Positions 34,820 to 42,718 of a stretch of 64,000 nt of DNA are shown here, in pieces; positions within the stretch are counted from its first letter, which is position 1; every line of letters begins with the position of its first letter. Origin of the DNA: Escherichia coli (GTDB lineage: Bacteria; Pseudomonadota; Gammaproteobacteria; Enterobacterales; Enterobacteriaceae); assembly GCF_046105845.1 (NCBI RefSeq), contig NZ_CP151004.1. One strand, given 5' to 3'. The position numbers and the translations under genes are program-made. The notes under the pieces are model-generated. The model was not told where the DNA came from and made no database searches. It saw only the letters and a list, made by a program, of their open reading frames with translations.

Positions 34820-36406
34820 TTAATGCTCGCGGGTCTGGTGGAACTGAACGTCCGGATAACGTTCCTGCGCCAGGCGCAGGTTTACCATGCTGGTAGCGAT
34901 GTAAGCGAGGTTATCGCCGCCATCAAGCGCCAGTTGGCTTTCGTTCTTACGCTTGAACTCTTCGAATTTCTTCGCGTCCGCACATTCTACCCAGCGGGCA
35001 GTGGCAACGTTGACTGACTCATACACTGCTTCAACGTTGTATTCGCTCTTCAGGCGCGCTACCACCACATCAAACTGCAGCACACCAACCGCGCCAACGA
35101 TCAGATCGTTGTTGGAGATCGGACGGAACACCTGCACCGCGCCCTCTTCGGAAAGCTGTACCAGCCCTTTAAGCAGCTGTTTTTGCTTCAGCGGATCTTT
35201 CAGGCGGATACGACGGAACAGTTCTGGCGCGAAGTTCGGAATACCGGTGAACTTCATCATCTCACCCTGGGTAAAGGTGTCGCCGATCTGAATGGTGCCG
35301 TGGTTGTGCAGACCAAGGATATCGCCAGGATATGCTTCTTCAACGTGCGAACGGTCACCCGCCATAAAGGTCAGCGCGTCGGAGATCACCACATCTTTCG
35401 CAGTACGCACCTGGCGCAGCTTCATGCCTTTTTCATATTTACCGGACACCACACGCATAAACGCCACGCGGTCGCGGTGTTTCGGGTCCATGTTGGCCTG
35501 AATTTTAAATACGAAGCCGGTAAATTTGTCTTCGCTCGCCTCTACGGTACGGGTATCAGTCTGACGCGGCATCGGCGCAGGGGCCCACTCCACCAGGCCA
35601 TCCAGCATATGATCGACGCCGAAGTTACCCAGCGCAGTACCAAAGAATACCGGGGTGATTTCGCCCGCAAGGAACAATTCTTTGTCGAACTCGTTAGACG
35701 CGCCTTTCACCAGCTCCAGTTCATCACGCAGCTGCTGCGCCAGATCTTCACCAACCGCAGCGTCGAGATCCGGGTTATTCAGCCCTTTAACAATGCGGAC
35801 TTCCTGAATGGTGTGGCCTTTACCACTCTGATAAAGATAGGTTTCATCTTTATAAAGGTGATAAACGCCTTTAAACAGCTTGCCGCAGCCAATCGGCCAG
35901 GTGATCGGTGCACAGCCGATTTTCAGCTCGTTCTCAACTTCATCGAGCAGCTCCATCGGGTCGCGGATATCACGGTCAAGTTTGTTCATAAAGGTGAGGA
36001 TCGGCGTGTCGCGCAGACGGGTAACTTCCATCAGCTTACGGGTACGATCTTCAACACCTTTTGCGGCGTCGATAACCATCAGGCAGCAGTCCACCGCCGT
36101 CAGGGTACGATAGGTATCTTCCGAGAAGTCTTCGTGCCCCGGGGTGTCGAGCAGGTTAACCAGGCAATCGTGATACGGAAACTGCATCACAGACGTGGTA
36201 ATGGAGATCCCACGCTGCTTTTCCATCTCCATCCAGTCCGACTTAGCGTGCTGGTTGGAACCACGGCCTTTTACTGTACCGGCGGTCTGAATGGCCTGTC
36301 CGAACAGCAGCACCTTCTCGGTGATGGTAGTCTTACCGGCGTCCGGGTGAGAAATAATTGCAAAGGTTCTTCTTTTCGCTACCTCTGCGGCCAAAAGGCT
36401 TGTCAT
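34820..36406 (-). CDS. prfC: Peptide chain release factor 3 (RF3); first about 9 codons differ from the K-12 N-terminus I recall
   Basis: ORF track 34820..36433; start at [27 protein letters not shown]; rest of the protein matches E. coli RF3. Confidence 0.9.
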
Positions 36407-36560
36407 AATTGTTGTCTCTTTGATTATGTACAATCATATGTACAAAGAAAAATTCATGCCGCTGATTGTACATTTTGGAGGTATCAGAGCATAGCAGAAC
36501 ATGATCAGTAGGTGTATTTGTAGCCAAAGAACATTTGTACATGCAGCAATCTTTGTTCTA

Positions 36561-36610
36561 TTGACACTGTTTATTCATACAGTTAAAAATAACACTGTAT
36601 ACAAACACAG
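36561..36610 (+). promoter_or_regulatory. Promoter with two LexA (SOS) boxes upstream of the dinI-like gene
   Basis: -35 ttgaca at 36561-36566; CTGT-N8-ACAG boxes ctgtttattcatacag (36567-36582) and ctgtatacaaacacag (36595-36610). Confidence 0.65.
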
Positions 36611-36625
36611 TGTAGAGGGATTTTT

Positions 36626-36874
36626 ATGCGTATTGAGATCTGCATAGCCAAAGAGAAAATGACTAAAATGCCAAACGGTGCTGTGGATGCGTTAAAGGAA
36701 GAATTAACTCGACGCATCAGTAAGCGTTATGACGATGTAGAGGTGATCGTAAAAGCCACCAGCAACGATGGCCTTTCTGTTACGCGCACCGCCGATAAAG
36801 ATTCAGCTAAAACTTTTGTTCAGGAAACTCTGAAAGATACCTGGGAGTCTGCTGACGAGTGGTTTGTTCACTAA
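36626..36874 (+). CDS. DinI-family SOS-response protein (prophage-borne), 82 aa
   Basis: ORF track; [11 protein letters not shown]...[11 protein letters not shown] closely resembles DinI (MRIEVTIAKT...TWESADDWFV). Confidence 0.8.
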
Positions 36875-37300
36875 TTAACACGTAAAATCGGTAACGGCTG
36901 GAAATCATTCAATACTCGCACTATCGGAAGTTCACCAGCCAACCGCAGCACGTTCTTGCATACGACGTGTCTGCGGTTTTTCAACCATTCAGATACAGCA
37001 CTCTCATAACATTCATTCTTCCGCATTAAAGTATATATGACCATATCACCTTAATATTTTTCTTCTTCAGATAAAAATTGTTATCTATGTATACTTTTAA
37101 ACCGAATCCGTGTAGAGTCTCTACCTAAGTTAGTTCGCAGCTCCCCCTTCAGTTTGCGCCATTAACCTCCTGACTTTTGCCGCTATCTGTAAGCATTCCT
37201 GTATACCTGAAACTACAGGGTTCATCTACGAACTTTAAGAACACCCAGGATAAAAATTGTCAACTATATTATATATAACACCATACTAATTCGAGGCTAT

Positions 37301-37414
37301 ATGAACAGCATACTGATAATCACTTCACTACTTATCATATTCAGCATTTTTGGTCATGCTCTAATAAAATTAGGGATTGGCATATCCAATAACCCGGACA
37401 AAACAGATGTATAA
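37301..37414 (+). CDS. Candidate 37-aa hydrophobic peptide ([37 protein letters not shown]) with GAGG ribosome-binding site
   Basis: Manual ORF in AT-rich region; single predicted TM helix; below ORF track cutoff; coding status unproven. Confidence 0.3.
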
Positions 37415-37482
37415 GTCAACATATCCTGAATCAGACATACAATATTGCAATGAAAACCAATAATATTTTAAGGAATATCTTC

Positions 37483-37716
37483 ATGAAATCAAAAGACACC
37501 CTAAAGTGGTTCCCTGCGCAGCTTCCTGAAGTCAGAATTATCCTGGGAGATGCTGTCGTGGAAGTAGCAAAACAGGGAAGACCTATCAATACCAGAACAT
37601 TGCTTGATTACATTGAAGGAAACATAAAGAAAAAGTCATGGCTGGATAACAAAGAATTATTACAAACAGCGATATCAGTTCTTAAAGACAACCAAAATTT
37701 AAATGGTAAAGTGTAA
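37483..37716 (+). CDS. YnaE/YdfK-like small prophage protein (about 77 aa)
   Basis: ORF track 37450..37716; start at MKSKDTLKWFPAQLPEV; resembles Rac/Qin ynaE/ydfK as I recall them, located next to the pin-like gene as in those prophages. Confidence 0.5.
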   Translation: MKSKDTLKWFPAQLPEVRIILGDAVVEVAKQGRPINTRTLLDYIEGNIKKKSWLDNKELLQTAISVLKDNQNLNGKV

Positions 37717-38095
37717 TACCCCCCCTGAAAAATAATTTTTCAATGCATTAAAAAAATATCAACAACTACGTTATTCCGCAACAACCTACTTTTTTTACCA
37801 TTTTTCCACTTTAACAACATTTTGCTCCACTTTTCCACGACCAAACAACTTAAAATCTGGTTGAAATAACATACAACACTATTATTCGTCTTCCTCGAGT
37901 CCGCCCGGAGTTCGAAAAACAAACCGAGTTAAAGCCATTTTTCAAAAAATCGATTTTTGGTTACACCAAAATTACGGGACTGCATCCGAATTCGTTTATT
38001 TTCGAACGTATACATACAAATATGTACAATAATAAGCGAAATAATTTTTGGATATGCATTATGATATGTACACCAATTTCGTATAGAGTCTCACT

Positions 38096-38686
38096 ATGTC
38101 TCGAATTTTTGCTTACTGTCGGATATCAACGCTGGATCAGACCACCGAAAATCAACGCCGGGAAATCGAAAGTGCAGGTTTTAAAATCAAACCTCAGCAA
38201 ATAATCGAAGAACACATTAGCGGCTCAGCAGCAACCAGTGAGCGTCCTGGTTTTAACCGGTTGCTTGCTCGCCTGAAATGTGGTGATCAATTGATTGTGA
38301 CAAAACTGGATCGCCTTGGTTGTAATGCAATGGATATCAGGAAAACAGTGGAACAACTGACCGAAACAGGTATCAGAGTGCATTGCTTAGCATTGGGGGG
38401 CATTGACCTGACCAGTCCAACAGGAAAAATGATGATGCAAGTAATTTCAGCAGTCGCTGAATTTGAACGAGACCTTTTACTTGAACGCACTCATTCCGGG
38501 ATAGTAAGAGCCCGGGGCGCAGGGAAACGTTTTGGTCGACCACCTGTGTTAAATGAAGAACAGAAACAGGTGGTATTCGAACGGATTAAGTCAGGTGTAA
38601 GTATAAGTGCCATTGCCCGGGAATTCAAAACCTCGCGGCAAACCATTTTAAGAGCCAAAGCAAAACTTCAGACACCTGACATATAA
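38096..38686 (+). CDS. Serine recombinase / DNA invertase of the PinR/PinQ type (196 aa)
   Basis: ORF track; catalytic-Ser N-terminus [17 protein letters not shown] motif, C-terminal HTH; adjacent to tail-fibre genes. Confidence 0.85.
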
Positions 38687-38783
38687 AAAATAATCTTGGT
38701 GTGAGATGCTTTACGTCTTCCAAGCCCCCTTCCTTGCCGTAAATGGAAAGATACATCTAATTATAGAATTTATATGTTTTACC

Positions 38784-39359
38784 CTACGGCAGTGCTGGCC
38801 ATTCAATATCCTGTGCAGTTGACGTATCAACACGGTTCAGCAATACCCGATACTTTTTCCATGCTTCCAGCAACGAGATTTCTTCCTCCGTTGCAATTTC
38901 CAGATCTGCAGCATCCTGAAGCGGCGCAATATGCTCACTGGCTACCTGCATCAGGCTGTTTTTTGTTTCTTCCGCCTCCCGGATCCGGAACAGTTTTTCT
39001 GCTTCTGCATCTTTCACCCAGGCTGTGCCGTTCCACTTCTGAAACTCCCCTTCCGGCGATAACCAGGTAACATTTTCCGGTAACGGACCGAGTTCAGAAA
39101 TAAATAACGCGTCCCCTGACGCTACGTCATAAACCGTTTTACCCCGATGGTCTTCAACGAGATGCCACGATGCCTCATCACTGTTGAAAACAGCCACGAA
39201 GCCTGCCGGAATATCTGGCGGTGCAATATCGGTACTGTTTGCTGGCAGACCTGTATGAGGCGGAATATATGCGTCACCTTCACCAATAAATTCATTAGTT
39301 CCGGCCAGCAGATTATAAATTTTTATGGTCCGTGGTTGTTCACTCATTCTGAATGCCAT
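38784..39359 (-). CDS. Tail fibre assembly protein (Tfa), 191 aa
   Basis: ORF track; immediately downstream of side tail fibre gene; Tfa-like size. Confidence 0.8.
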
Positions 39360-42300
39360 TATGCAAGCCTCACAATGTAGTTAAATGCGATGTTTTTGAC
39401 GGTGTTTTCCGCGTTACCAGCAGCGTTAACGGTGATAGTGTGTCCATGTGAGCCAATCGCAACAGAGTGCGTATGAGCACCAATACCGACAGTATGTGCG
39501 TGAGCACCTGCAGATGCGGCTGTGCCGCTAACACTATGAGTGTGCGCTCCTGCAGCACTTGTATTCACACTGGCCGCAGACACTACCTTATGTACTGACC
39601 CATTTTGTGACCACTGGCTGACTGCTGATGCGCCTGTGACACTATGAGTATGGTTTCCGGCACTTGCGGCTGTACCGCTCACACTGTGCGTATGCGCCCC
39701 GGTGTTATTCGTGGATTTAGTGCCGTAATCAAACGACGATGTGGTTTTCGTCCCCAAATCCGTACTGGATGCGCTGGCGCTGTGGGTGTGCGATTTAATG
39801 CCGTCCTGTTCCTGAGACAATACGGCCCGACCACTGGCAGGTTTGCCCTTAATCGTCCAGCTACGCATATCAGGGATCACGCCTGACGGATAAGCGGCTG
39901 CAAGTTTCGGGTATGCAGATTTGTCAAAAGTCTGCCCCTGCATCAGGGCATAACCAGACGGAACGGTATCTGATGGCCACGGGATTGGTGCGCCGACTGG
40001 GTAGCTTTCTGGTGGAAGATTTTTCGAGGTATAAACTTCTGCCCAGTCTTCCTCAAAACCATAGCCATCTCTTGAGGAACGGTAGAACAGACCTCCATTT
40101 CTGTAATGCGCCTTCATCTGCAGGGTCCGGCAACTTCCGACTCCGGTATAGAAGTTAACCAGAATATAGCTGTCGCCAGAGCGGGTGACATTGTAAGCGC
40201 CTGATTCGGCATTCCATGGAACGCCCCCATCCGCATCGGCATACGTATCCGTTGCTCTTCTGGCAAAAGCAGCCACATGCGCGGCGGTTAAAGTAATATC
40301 TTTGGAACCATCAAACTCAACACCAGAAACCCGTCTTGGCGTTTGCAGCTTTGTTGCTGTTAATGCATTACCGTTCAGACTTGCGGACAGTTTGGTTCCA
40401 ATAACCAGCTCGCCGGTTGCGTTATCAATAGCAAACGGTCTTAATGTATTCCAGCCACCATAAACATCACCTTGATTGGTAAGCAGCAGGTAAGTTTTAG
40501 CGCCATCATTACGCCATAATGCACCATACTCCCCACCTATCATTCGAATCTGATTACCACCACGCGCTACAATTTCGTCTGTGGCAAAAAGTTTTTTGCA
40601 CGACAAGTTATCGTTAACGATTAACGAATGAGACTCATAAAAACCACGCCCACTCTTAAAATCAAGGATAACGTCCGCCGCGATACATTCAGTCGCTGGA
40701 TTTGTTGCCCCAAACTTATAGGTCGTATCATTAACAACGAGATCAGCACCAGGTGCGGATATTGACAGGCCATCTTCGATAAACGCAAAAACAGGGAAAG
40801 CAGCGCCATCAACATAGAACACAGAGCGCAAATCATCGCCCTTATTACTCATCATTATTGAGTGGATGGCTCGTTCATTGTTTTGATATTGCCAGAACAT
40901 TCCATAAGCATAACGCCCCCTGTCAGTCCAGCCACCAGGCATAACAAATCCGTTAAACTCGCAGTTATTCATCGGATCGCCTGCGGTTCGCGTTGCCGTG
41001 GTGATAATGACCCTTGATGCCAGTTCGCTTACTGAGCCAGCAGAACGCATAACAACAACAGGGTAATATTTTCCAGATGTTGCACCTGCAGGAGCGTTAA
41101 CCCGCACATAACGCATACCACGCTTATCAGCAAAGTCTGTTTTACTGACCGCGTTAATGTTGTTCAGGAAGCGTCCCTTATCGGGTATATCAGCGCCGTT
41201 CTGGTCTTTCTGCAGACGTTTCTCTGCATTGTCATAGGCTGATTTTACTGCCTTTGGCGTTGCCGCCAGCGTTTCAGACGTACTGTTGGTCGCACTGCTG
41301 AGCTGTACTATCCCCTTTTTCGTCGTGCTCGCATCCTCAAGCGCCACGGCGGATGCAATATCCTCTGCCCGTTTTGCCGCTGTCTCAGCGCGCGTTGCTG
41401 CAGATTCCGCCGTACTTTTGCTCTGAGCTGCTGCCGTCGCACTACCAGCAGCCTCTGTCGCCTTCGTGGATGCCGTCGTGGCGCTGCCCTTCGCTGCTGA
41501 CGCCTGTCTGGTCGCCTCATCTTTTGAAGCAGACGCCGATGAGGCCGATGACGCCGCCGAACTGGCGGACGATGCCGCTGCCGTTTTTGAGGATTCTGCA
41601 CGGGTTTCCGACGCTTTCGCGTTCGTTTCGGATGTCTTCGCTGCGGAAGCTGACCTCGCTGCTGCCGTGGCCTGCTCAGTGGCTTCGCCAGCCTTCGTTG
41701 TGGCTGTTGAAGCGGATGATGCGGCGCTTTCTGCCGATTTTCCGGCGGCGGTGGCACTGACTGAGGCCTGCCCGGCACTTGTTGACGCGGCACTGGCAGA
41801 CGACGCAGCCGCTGTTTTTGAGCCTGCCGCAGCTGAGGCGCTCTGTCCCGCTGCCGTCTCAGAAGACCTGGCGTTCGTCTCGGACGTTTTTGCCGCCTTC
41901 GCGGAATTTCCTGCCGCCGTTGCCGAGGAAGCTGCGCTGCTGGCGCTCGAGGCTGCGTTCGTTTCTGATGATTTTGCCGCCTCTTTTGAAGCCGACGCAT
42001 CCCGTGCTGAAGTGGCTGCTTCTGACGCTTTCGTGGTCGCGGTGGATGCAGAAGTGGCTGCTGATTGTTGTGACGCTGCCGCATTCGTTTCTGACGTTTT
42101 CGCCGCACCGGCACTGGTAGCCGCCGCGCTTTTTGAGGACTCTGCAGCGGCAGCACTTTTTGATGCTTCAGTGGCCTTTGCTGATGCCGTTCCTGCGCTG
42201 GAAGACGCTGACTGAGCCGACGACGCGGCCTGTCCGGCTGACGTGCTGGCTGCGCGTGCTGAGCCTGCAGCATCAGTCGCATGGGTTGCCGCCTCACGGG

Positions 42301-42718
42301 CTGATGTGCTGGCATTGCTGGCTGACTTCTTCGCGGCTGCTGTGTTCTGTGCCACCGCGGACGCGTTACGCGCCACCTCTTCCACCATCAGTTCAAAACG
42401 TCGCAGTGCCTCCGGACGGGTATCATCCTCCGTCATGGCACCGAGAAAATCATTCAGCGTACCGGGTTGAGAATCTTCATACACGGTGATGGTCCCGGCA
42501 TGTGACGGCGGGAATCCCTCCACCAACAGAATAACGCTGTACTGACCGTACTCAACGTCCATACTGTAACGCCCGGCTTCATCCGGATTTTCTGAGGCCA
42601 GCGTGTTCACCACCACAGTGGTACTGTTACGTTTTGCTTTCAGCTGGATTGTGCAGTTCTGTACCGGTTTTCCTGTGCCGTCTTTCAGTACACCTGAAAT
42701 CTTTACTGCCATATTCAC
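39359..42718 (-). CDS. Lambdoid side tail fibre protein (Stf-like), 1119 aa with long Ala/Ser/Thr-rich low-complexity region
   Basis: ORF track; N-terminus [17 protein letters not shown] typical of Stf; StfR-like length. Confidence 0.8.

Follow-up and report, generated by a model that had tools for sequence, protein, structure and literature searches.

A YnaM/YnfT-family small protein gene in an AT-rich accessory cassette of an Escherichia coli prophage

The small proteins YnaM (b4744) and YnfT (b4748) of Escherichia coli K-12 are encoded by the Rac and Qin prophages, respectively. Synthesis of YnaM and of the Qin copy was shown by immunoblotting with chromosomal SPA tags (VanOrsdel et al. 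2018, PMC6001520, where the Qin copy, now ynfT, is called YnfQ), and in ordinary LB culture YnaM reaches comparatively high levels, above those of most newly identified small proteins (preprint 10.1101/511675). Weaver et al. obtained no ribosome density at the YnaM start codon under retapamulin or Onc112 (10.1101/511675); we suspect multi-mapping here, as the K-12 copies are almost the same in sequence. That YnaM is made in uninduced cells is established for the copies of K-12, whose products are 97% identical to the protein described here; the present ORF is supported indirectly, by purifying selection.

The DNA analyzed here is a 64-kb stretch of an E. coli genome, referred to below as the window. 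A preliminary description of it had singled out positions 36875 to 38095 as an AT-rich moron block between a dinI-like and an invertase gene, with a 37-codon ORF in the style of type I toxins or small membrane regulators. The AT-richness is real. The GC content of the block is 0.356, against a window mean of 0.525 (sd 0.040) for stretches of 1221 nt; it is the lowest-GC stretch of the 64 kb, and the 0.3% of such stretches that are as low in GC all overlap it. Within the region, the GC content is 0.33-0.37 in the cassette formed by the ORF and the following gene, ydfK, versus 0.44-0.54 in the dinI-like, pin and stf genes. The claimed gene order also holds, and the features recognized are as follows.

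36626-36874, plus strand: DinI-like gene, the left neighbor (82-aa ORF; RefSeq "DinI-like family protein").
36881-36982, plus strand: two-hairpin element of about 100 nt that ends in an intrinsic-terminator-like hairpin, recognized by its conservation and fold and lying outside the moron.
37040-37125, plus strand: conserved non-coding island, a candidate upstream promoter, with a sigma-70-like TTCAGA-18-TATACT (37066-37095) from the consensus scan.
37249-37300, plus strand: presumed ynaM promoter and ribosome binding site, 52 nt, GATAAAAATTGTCAA...TATAAC...GAGG, with the Shine-Dalgarno (SD) sequence GAGG at 37293-37296.
37301-37414, plus strand: ynaM/ynfT-family gene for a 37-aa small protein, predicted to be a single-pass membrane protein (NF041477, PF23676, phrog_35882, RefSeq).
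37415-37482, plus strand: ynaM-ydfK spacer of 68 nt (73-74 nt in Salmonella, by alignment), which holds the ydfK SD, AAGGA.
37483-37716, plus strand: ydfK, cold shock protein YdfK/YnaE family, 77 aa (RefSeq; phrog_2718, E=3e-47; Pfam PF27475, named YnaE).
37717-38095, plus strand: AT-rich region before the invertase gene; a site resembling the pin promoter, TATACA-16-AATAAG, lies at 38009-38036.
38096-38686, plus strand: serine recombinase or Pin-type DNA invertase gene, the right neighbor (196-aa ORF; RefSeq "recombinase family protein").

The ORF at 37301-37414 begins with ATG and encodes 37 residues, as had been described, and the GAGG noted upstream lies 4 nt before the start codon. A single hydrophobic helix followed by a polar tail is also borne out: the Kyte-Doolittle profile (19-residue window) peaks at 2.54 over residues 4-22, and a polar stretch, SNNPDKTDV, forms the tail. 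The protein matched NCBIfam NF041477 with 59.9 bits (cut-off 35; residues 2-34 of 37), Pfam PF23676 (YnaM) with E=5.6e-27 over residues 1-37, and phrog_35882 in PHROGs; RefSeq places the CDS WP_001372053.1 at identical coordinates. The exact peptide was found on at least 1000 public contigs, where it is named as YnaM/YnfT family. It has the architecture of the family, with about 37 residues, a hydrophobic N-terminal helix and then K-x-GIG-x-SNNPDK-x-D, and it lies where family members lie, at a prophage end near tail-fibre genes and just upstream of ydfK. We regard it as virtually certain that this ORF is a genuine YnaM-family gene. Judged by its sequence it is the S18G allele of the known small protein, with 36 of 37 residues identical to K-12 YnaM and YnfT. 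It is an already known gene and not a new candidate, and because the gene is present in Pfam, NCBIfam, PHROGs, RefSeq and the K-12 annotation, its recognition here has no value as a discovery. The "uncharacterised small phage-borne function" proposed for the block needs the corresponding amendment: ynfT was still listed as uncharacterised in the 2024 y-ome survey (PMC11551758), but the gene is far from unrecognised, belonging to a curated family. The ORF is unannotated in the deposited genomes of phages 2H10, Tritos, PhiR63_1, mEp460_ev081 and PhiR68_2.

The K-12 loci share with this one the SD, the 52-nt upstream block, the 68-nt distance to ydfK or ynaE, and the downstream order pin-tfa-stf. 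They differ in location, since the prophage that carries the present copy is neither Rac nor Qin but a 2H10-like one at prfC; in its left neighbor, as a DinI-like gene lies upstream here; and in about 4% nucleotide divergence of the cassette, with a 60-bp insertion after ydfK. Over the block, this prophage is 99.9% identical to Escherichia phage 2H10. In its left neighbor, the DinI-like protein, the NCBIfam model PRK10597 (DinI) scored 72.5 bits, below the equivalog cut-off, and phrog_189 (DinI) gave E=4e-31. The gene to the right is annotated as "DNA invertase" in phages 2H10 and HannyBb; no hix/gix-like crossover sites were found near pin or stf, and their total in the window was within the range of shuffled sequences.

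Morons in the sense established for phages HK97 and lambda include lom, bor and HK97 gp15. These are genes of deviant composition that are set between conserved phage modules and expressed from the prophage; the present cassette resembles them in composition and placement, and its K-12 counterparts do so in expression as well. Together, ynaM and ydfK constitute a two-gene AT-rich accessory ("moron") cassette, at about 37245-37716, at the tail-fibre and attachment-site end of a lambdoid prophage. Homology to the Salmonella cassettes is confined to 37252-37718 and has sharp boundaries, and in HK97, which lacks the cassette, the conserved 100-nt element runs straight to tfa. The moron designation of the whole block stands for the cassette with ydfK but not for its first 100 or so nucleotides (36881-36982, GC 0.47), which are a separate conserved element. 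An inverted repeat flanking the cassette (37051-37082 and 37731-37762, 72% complementary) was judged to be a chance feature of AT-rich DNA.

The separate element comprises hairpin 1 (36896-36940), hairpin 2 (36943-36976) and a T-run (36977-36981), with a predicted fold of -31.9 kcal/mol (z=-3.7 versus shuffles). It is 89-98% identical in HK97, mEp460, Stx-converting and other lambdoid phages; of 204 phage records matched, most matched only this element. In HK97 it lies directly 3' to the annotated sib/tI site. It may act as a terminator. An Rfam match of this element to CssrB was rejected, as its 24 bits fall short of the gathering score, 76, and it rests mainly on hairpin 2 on the opposite strand. 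The island at 37040-37125 has about 4 variable positions among five E. coli-type copies, versus about 18-20 in the next 100 nt; it is found only in E. coli-type prophages and is absent from the Salmonella cassettes. It may function as a promoter, although promoter-like matches in the AT-rich region are no commoner than in shuffles (consensus scan). Homology between the E. coli and Salmonella copies starts at about 37245-37252, and the 52-nt block that follows precedes every ynaM copy, including two stand-alone copies lacking ydfK (L042 and L052). Neither canonical hexamer spacing upstream of ynaM nor a terminator after ydfK was found in the consensus scan, although the 52-nt block travels with the gene; because the hexamer spacing is non-canonical, we can only infer that 37249-37300 contains the ynaM promoter. 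Four small spacer ORFs (36871-37044, 37130-37225 and 37149-37244 on the minus strand, and 37177-37278 on the plus strand) were rejected, being interrupted in the K-12 copies or showing mostly nonsynonymous changes.

Published data bear on the start of ydfK. Top-down MS gave intact masses of 8772.78 and 8745.75 Da (PMC5594050), in agreement with the values calculated for the K-12 forms of 77 aa that include Met (8772.80 and 8745.75). An 88-codon form starting at the ATG at 37450 is ruled out by these masses and by its absence in Salmonella. For K-12 ydfK/ynaE, a Fur-box cluster has been predicted at +8 relative to the start then in the annotation (PMC2189734); it would correspond to about 37450-37480 here, that start presumably being the 88-codon ATG. 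Downstream of ydfK, alignment with Rac and Qin places the insertion of about 60 bp at 37720-37779. In K-12 the ydfK-pinQ spacer has gSELEX peaks of sigma-70 holoenzyme, which are of low resolution in such spacers, with TGTACA-16-AATAAT as the assigned promoter and H-NS flagged (PMC3946193).

The ynaM reading frame is under strong purifying selection at the protein level. Across the 10 distinct DNA alleles compared, from prophages of E. coli and Salmonella, none of the 37 codons has been lost, and 8, 6 and 18 sites vary at codon positions 1, 2 and 3. In frame 0, dN/dS is 0.04-0.18, whereas frames 1 and 2 give about 1 or more, and Fisher tests of synonymous versus nonsynonymous changes between E. 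coli and Salmonella copies gave p=6e-6 and 4e-7. The preliminary description had staked the ORF on conservation of its frame among homologous prophages, and the frame proved to be clearly conserved in both E. coli and Salmonella. It could be supposed that the peptide, though translated, does nothing and is a relic that travels with the end of the prophage; it has no known phenotype, and in K-12 it sits in cryptic prophages. We give this supposition almost no credence: dN/dS is far below 1, the exact length is kept across E. coli and Salmonella, the tail motif survives in distant homologs, and the gene is present in viable temperate phages.

Selection on the amino acids also bears on whether ynaM might be a regulatory upstream ORF or leader peptide, whose translation alone would matter in controlling ydfK, for example in the cold. 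The arrangement would suit such a role. The two genes share a strand, ydfK begins 68-74 nt beyond ynaM, a terminator scan of the spacer found none, and according to the literature ydfK and ynaE are cold-induced, with ydfK strongly regulated by cold. However, a leader of this kind would not be expected to have its amino-acid sequence so strongly selected, and the tagged K-12 protein is stable enough to be detected (PMC6001520). No shared RNA fold or anti-SD pairing of ynaM with ydfK, and no conserved alternative structure tying the ORF to the ydfK ribosome binding site, was found, the minimum-energy folds of the E. coli and Salmonella sequences being in disagreement. The two genes are also separable: intact ynaM copies with their upstream block exist without ydfK (L042 and L052), and ydfK homologs with 55-64% identity occur without ynaM upstream. 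Since each is found without the other, we conclude that ynaM is not a leader peptide, and overall we consider a leader function very improbable.

The ynaM-ydfK cassette occurs in about half (52%) of complete E. coli genomes. In Salmonella enterica prophages, YnaM/YnfT-family proteins (e.g. AOP04173.1, phage 118970_sal3) are 70-76% identical in amino acid sequence to the present protein and have the same length and the same C-terminal half. Their cassette is likewise paired with a ydfK homolog and likewise adjoins tail-fibre assembly genes; it differs in that the phage record around it includes baseplate-J and tail proteins, and in that ydfK is missing from some copies. A profile search of 1.84 billion representatives yielded only 21 clusters. 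Two distant full-length homologs of 38 aa have diverged hydrophobic N-termini and the motif A-x-[IV]-K-[IV]-G-I-G-L-S-N-N-P-D-[KR]; what they retain in common with YnaM is only a hydrophobic N-terminus and K-x-G-I-G-x-S-N-N-P-D-K/R, and they too are located at prophage ends, beside tail-fibre and tail-fibre-assembly genes. The strongest conservation in YnaM is in the polar tail motif and not in the helix. A contig scan with the YnaM alignment confirmed at least two E. coli loci among the matches listed, but it gives no species range, as the hydrophobic pattern is degenerate.

This pattern of conservation is pertinent to the suggestion that the ORF encodes the toxin of a type I toxin-antitoxin-like module, a membrane-depolarising peptide checked by an antisense RNA. 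Being short and hydrophobic, with one helix, and encoded in AT-rich DNA that was acquired horizontally, the peptide has the look of such a toxin, and a promoter-like TTGATT-16-TAAAAT on the minus strand at 37492-37465 could drive an antisense transcript, but promoter-like matches here are at the level of chance. Rfam searches at E up to 5 gave no antitoxin or other sRNA family; besides the sub-threshold CssrB, only noise (snoRNA, miRNA, ToxI) appeared, at E above 0.2. On the minus strand, a scan of the conserved cassette and its surroundings detected nothing resembling a terminator, although an uncatalogued RNA could escape a sequence search. Among protein families, Pfam at E up to 10 gave only YnaM and a spurious DUF7207, NCBIfam only YnaM_YnfT, and PADLOC nothing. 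The gene is also without a long structured leader, conservation beginning only 52 nt upstream. Type I toxins are normally kept untranslated, and conservation that peaks in the tail rather than the helix is not what a toxin would suggest. K-12 YnaM-SPA is, moreover, readily detected in normal LB (10.1101/511675, PMC6001520). With these searches negative and the K-12 protein abundant, the resemblance to type I toxins did not hold up, and we consider a toxin very improbable.

The explanation that we favor as a whole, and consider reasonably probable, is that the ORF is a YnaM allele in a prophage cassette and encodes a predicted membrane-anchored modulator. The variable hydrophobic N-terminus would serve only to anchor YnaM in the inner membrane, both its insertion and a single-pass topology, N-out/C-in, being predicted from hydropathy. 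The invariant juxtamembrane and C-terminal motif, K-x-G-I-G-x-S-N-N-P-D-K/R-x-D, would be the working part; by analogy with small membrane regulators, it may bind and modulate a putative membrane-associated host or phage protein. In the lambdoid prophages of E. coli and Salmonella, ynaM and ydfK probably form one transcript, in which case ynaM would be induced by cold shock as ydfK is. The joint claim that YnaM is a membrane-anchored modulator and neither a toxin nor a leader peptide is one that we advance tentatively, at slightly less than an even balance. It is possible rather than probable that YnaM is more specifically a prophage-delivered membrane effector, whose tail motif docks on a specific host inner-membrane protein and so changes the physiology of the lysogen.

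One such function would be lysogenic conversion or superinfection exclusion, with YnaM blocking DNA entry or otherwise protecting the lysogen; this is a special case of the membrane-anchored modulator and not its opposite. Other prophage morons that lie next to tail genes protect the lysogen from incoming phages, and in every context examined ynaM was in the accessory slot between the attachment site or integrase and the tail-fibre genes. These contexts include lambdoid siphophages, the Salmonella phage 118970_sal3 locus with its baseplate-J and tail proteins, and Mu-Gp48-type prophages. One ynaM copy adjoins a gene of the Acyl_transf_3 family (PF01757), which includes O-antigen acetylases. 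Expression from cryptic prophages in uninduced K-12 (PMC6001520; 10.1101/511675) is also consistent with protection of a lysogen. However, none of the PADLOC defence models was matched by YnaM or YdfK, position is the sole argument, and point mutations in ydfK in phage-resistant K-12 isolates were judged by the authors to be unrelated to resistance (PMC12844343). On balance an exclusion factor seems unlikely.

If an effector role is correct, whether in cold adaptation together with YdfK or in superinfection exclusion, a function would be assigned to a gene that about half of E. coli strains and many Salmonella carry. The comparisons narrow the options, in that the peptide is selected as a protein, is separable from ydfK, has a conserved tail motif and occupies a steady accessory slot by the tail-fibre genes. 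The residual value is modest, the family being very common and experimentally confirmed, though without an assigned function.

Among known systems, the type I toxins Hok, Ldr, TisB, Ibs, ShoB, ZorO and DinQ are, like YnaM, short hydrophobic peptides encoded in accessory DNA. YnaM differs from them in that the searches detected no antisense or antitoxin RNA and no match to their families, the protein is detectable in normal growth, and conservation is centered on the tail. Of the two suggestions in the preliminary description, toxin and small membrane regulator, the latter is by analogy the better. AcrZ, MgrB, MgtS, SgrT and CydX are small single-pass membrane regulators of E. coli. They are unrelated to YnaM in sequence and belong to chromosomal regulons rather than to a prophage, so that the analogy would be one of function only; what YnaM appears to have in common with them is its size, a single predicted transmembrane helix and stable accumulation in normal cultures.

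The window is E. coli chromosome carrying a lambdoid prophage inserted at the 5' end of prfC. The AT-rich block at 36875-38095 shares 99.9% identity with Escherichia phage 2H10, 99.5% with PhiR63_1, and 86% with Tritos, HannyBb, mEp460_ev081 and others. In related phage genomes the block has the integrase/attachment region on one side and invertase and tail-fibre genes on the other, and is therefore the prophage end adjoining the host junction. Beginning with the DinI-like gene, the order along the window is as follows, with prfC as the host gene at the junction.

34820-36406, - strand, prfC
36626-36874, DinI-like gene
36881-36982, conserved element of about 100 nt
36983-37244, AT-rich spacer between this element and the 37-codon ORF
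37301-37414, + strand, 37-codon ORF of the ynaM/ynfT family
37483-37716, + strand, ydfK, followed by a second AT-rich spacer
37717-38095, this second spacer, upstream of pin
38096-38686, Pin-type invertase gene (pin), after the second spacer
beyond the invertase gene, on the strand opposite to it, tfa and stf

Similarity to K-12 prfC ends at 36386, about 20 nt within the gene (region 36386-36625), the first 8 or so codons are unlike those of K-12, and yjjG is absent upstream. Thus, integration appears to have taken place inside the 5' end of prfC, with the prophage supplying a new N-terminus and upstream region. The N-terminal stretch compared is MTLSPYLQEVAKRR in K-12 and a sequence of 13 residues in the window.

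The observations of the preliminary description were confirmed. The block was said to be strongly AT-rich, and its GC content of 0.356 is the lowest in the window; 1221-nt stretches average 0.525 (s.d. 0.040), and only those overlapping the block reach so low a value. The ORF, the GAGG ahead of it (37293-37296) and ydfK behind it are all as described. The single hydrophobic segment with a polar tail is seen as a Kyte-Doolittle hydropathy peak of 2.54 at residues 4-22, the last nine residues being polar.

The peptide is recognised by the profiles NCBIfam NF041477 ("YnaM/YnfT family protein"; 59.9 bits, cut-off 35), Pfam PF23676 ("YnaM"; E=5.6e-27, all 37 positions) and phrog_35882. RefSeq has an entry for exactly this ORF, WP_001372053.1, "YnaM/YnfT family protein", in strains with an identical block, and at least 1000 public contigs carry the exact peptide, named as a member of this family. 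K-12 has two copies, ynaM (b4744) in Rac between ynaE and ttcC, and ynfT (b4748) in Qin ahead of ydfK, whose products are the same 37-residue sequence, one residue apart from the window peptide. Both were immunoblot-positive when tagged on the chromosome and positive in a tetracycline ribosome-profiling screen (VanOrsdel et al., PMC6001520, where the Qin copy is named YnfQ), and in the study of Weaver et al. (preprint 10.1101/511675) YnaM-SPA exceeded in level most of the small proteins that were newly detected. In the 2024 y-ome survey ynfT was still uncharacterised (PMC11551758). The ORF is present yet unannotated in LR595862/NC_049950 (2H10), OV696610 (Tritos), PV340573 (PhiR63_1), LR597641 (mEp460_ev081) and PV340576 (PhiR68_2).

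The reading frame, on whose conservation the preliminary description had staked its candidate, is conserved. Comparison with 28 more copies, taken from K-12, phages and IMG/VR contigs, showed 10 distinct DNA alleles, each exactly 37 codons, with 8, 6 and 18 variable sites at codon positions 1, 2 and 3. In every comparison dN/dS was 0.04-0.18 in frame 0, versus about 0.6-2.7 in the other two frames; Fisher tests of synonymous versus nonsynonymous changes gave p=6e-6 (window against Salmonella phage 118970_sal3) and 4e-7. None of the other short ORFs examined in the block was gene-like.

Half of the interpretation offered earlier holds. The ORF does encode a genuine small membrane protein, within a moron-like cassette, but the gene is already known and annotated. 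The one-helix peptide had also been likened to type I toxins, a reading that is unsupported and lacks every specific feature testable here: no antitoxin RNA family was matched in Rfam, a scan found no antisense terminator, Pfam, NCBIfam and PADLOC showed no similarity to toxin families, a long structured leader is absent, and the K-12 protein is readily seen without induction.

Co-transcription of ynaM and ydfK is likely from the sequence, because their spacing is maintained at 68-74 nt and no terminator-like site was found between them in the scan. Each gene nevertheless also occurs alone. In two viral contigs ynaM, complete with its 52-nt upstream block, has no ydfK beside it, and ydfK is likewise absent beside two distant 38-residue YnaM homologues. 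Conversely, ydfK homologues (55-64% identity) from Enterobacter, Limnobaculum and some E. coli are not preceded by a ynaM-like ORF. Both this separability and our failure to find a conserved RNA fold that couples the ynaM ORF to the ribosome-binding site of ydfK speak against ynaM being a leader peptide. For ydfK, published intact masses equal those calculated for the 77-residue forms, which fixes the start at 37483 (77 aa).

YdfK had no family in the Pfam release used for our profile search; precomputed annotation gives PF27475 (shown as YnaE). An AlphaFold2 model built from 21 homologues, with a mean pLDDT of 73.5, shows a small bundle of four helices. In the PDB, E. coli YmgB/AriR (2oxl_A) alone matched it notably, with a TM-score of 0.69/0.83, an rmsd of 1.8 A over 59 columns, and a Foldseek probability of 1.00 but E=0.11. 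The predicted resemblance to the YmgB/AriR fold is a lead rather than a finding. Distant ydfK/ynaE homologues lie in a setting quite unlike the prophage end, at these loci:

L065, 1218-1379
L067, 1170-1370
L068, 1170-1340

In Limnobaculum and some E. coli contigs the divergent neighbour encodes a small protein of the YnfU family (PF23499). In Enterobacter and E. coli a ydfK homologue also adjoins a 2860-residue GH94 glycosyl hydrolase-family gene.

The element at 36881-36982 behaves as a separate mosaic piece: HK97, mEp460, many Stx-converting phages, others, Rac and Qin all have it, with unrelated flanks each time, and it is usually the sole portion of the block common to those phages. In HK97 the annotated sib/tI site lies directly ahead of it and tfa directly behind. 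Its predicted fold has two hairpins (z=-3.7), with TTTTT after the second on the + strand, and it is probably a terminator closing the int or dinI-side transcript. The second hairpin resembles the CssrB 3' hairpin, modelled on the opposite strand, and accounts for most of a weak match to Rfam CssrB. The element is kept more tightly than a terminator role requires.

The spacer at 36983-37244 is limited to E. coli-type prophages, and a conserved island inside it (37040-37125) includes a promoter-like match. The cassette proper is 37245-37716, since similarity to Salmonella prophages runs from about 52 nt before the ynaM ATG to the ydfK stop codon. In K-12, sigma-70 holoenzyme peaks from genomic SELEX lie in the corresponding spacers, and H-NS was flagged for two of three, ynaE-uspF and ydfK-pinQ (PMC3946193). 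A Fur-box cluster has been predicted at +8 relative to the ydfK/ynaE start in use at the time (PMC2189734); if that start is read as the ATG at 37450, the cluster lies in the ynaM-ydfK interval. Two short direct repeats may represent common regulatory sites or relics of an earlier recombination: GATAAAAATTGT(T/C)A(T/A)CTAT, at 37067-37095 before the spacer island and at 37247-37275 before ynaM, and (A)CC(G)AAT(C/T)CGT(G/A)TAGAGTCTC, at 37098-37121 in the spacer and at 38069-38092 just before the pin start codon (79%, 24 nt). Directly after the ydfK stop is an insertion of about 60 bp relative to K-12 Rac/Qin (37720-37779), with a C7 run at its start and, further in, an AT-rich palindrome of 89% complementarity (37732-37759).

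No hix/gix-like crossover site was found within 37900-38800 and 39359-42718, nor an alternative tail-fibre C-terminus or second tfa copy between pin and tfa, so the invertase gene, like those of Rac and Qin, seems to be an orphan that has no segment to invert. The full-length match to Rfam RF02111 "IS009" (38818-39016, - strand; 221 bits, gathering score 117) is wholly within the tail-fibre assembly gene (38784-39359, - strand); this "RNA family" coincides with coding sequence.

Of 5426 complete E. coli genomes, 2804 carry the cassette, at 1-3 copies each. A YnaM profile search of 1.84 billion representative proteins gave only 21 clusters, mostly fragments. Two distant full-length members, MFAPSLVLSITAISLCVITFALIKIGIGLSNNPDKSDS and MITSISLISSVIVTLCIMVFATVKVGIGLSNNPDRNDN, differ in the hydrophobic N-terminus and keep A-x-[IV]-K-[IV]-G-I-G-L-S-N-N-P-D-[KR] almost unchanged. 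Both lie at the ends of Mu-Gp48-type prophages, adjoining tail-fibre and tail-fibre-assembly genes, and the host of one has an aspS 86.5% identical to that of E. coli. Where sources name a host, the family is found in prophages of Escherichia, Salmonella and that E. coli relative.

The variable hydrophobic N-terminus would be a membrane anchor, ahead of an invariant juxtamembrane and tail motif through which the anchored peptide may bind a partner. A variable anchor, an invariant motif and stable accumulation in normal cultures fit a partner-binding membrane peptide. An N-out/C-in topology is weakly suggested by the lysine directly after the helix and the lack of charge before it. Because ynaM occupies a constant accessory slot adjoining host-range genes, a role benefiting the lysogen, such as exclusion or envelope adaptation, possibly with YdfK in the cold, is plausible. 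By analogy, and from general knowledge, YnaM would resemble the small membrane regulators of E. coli.
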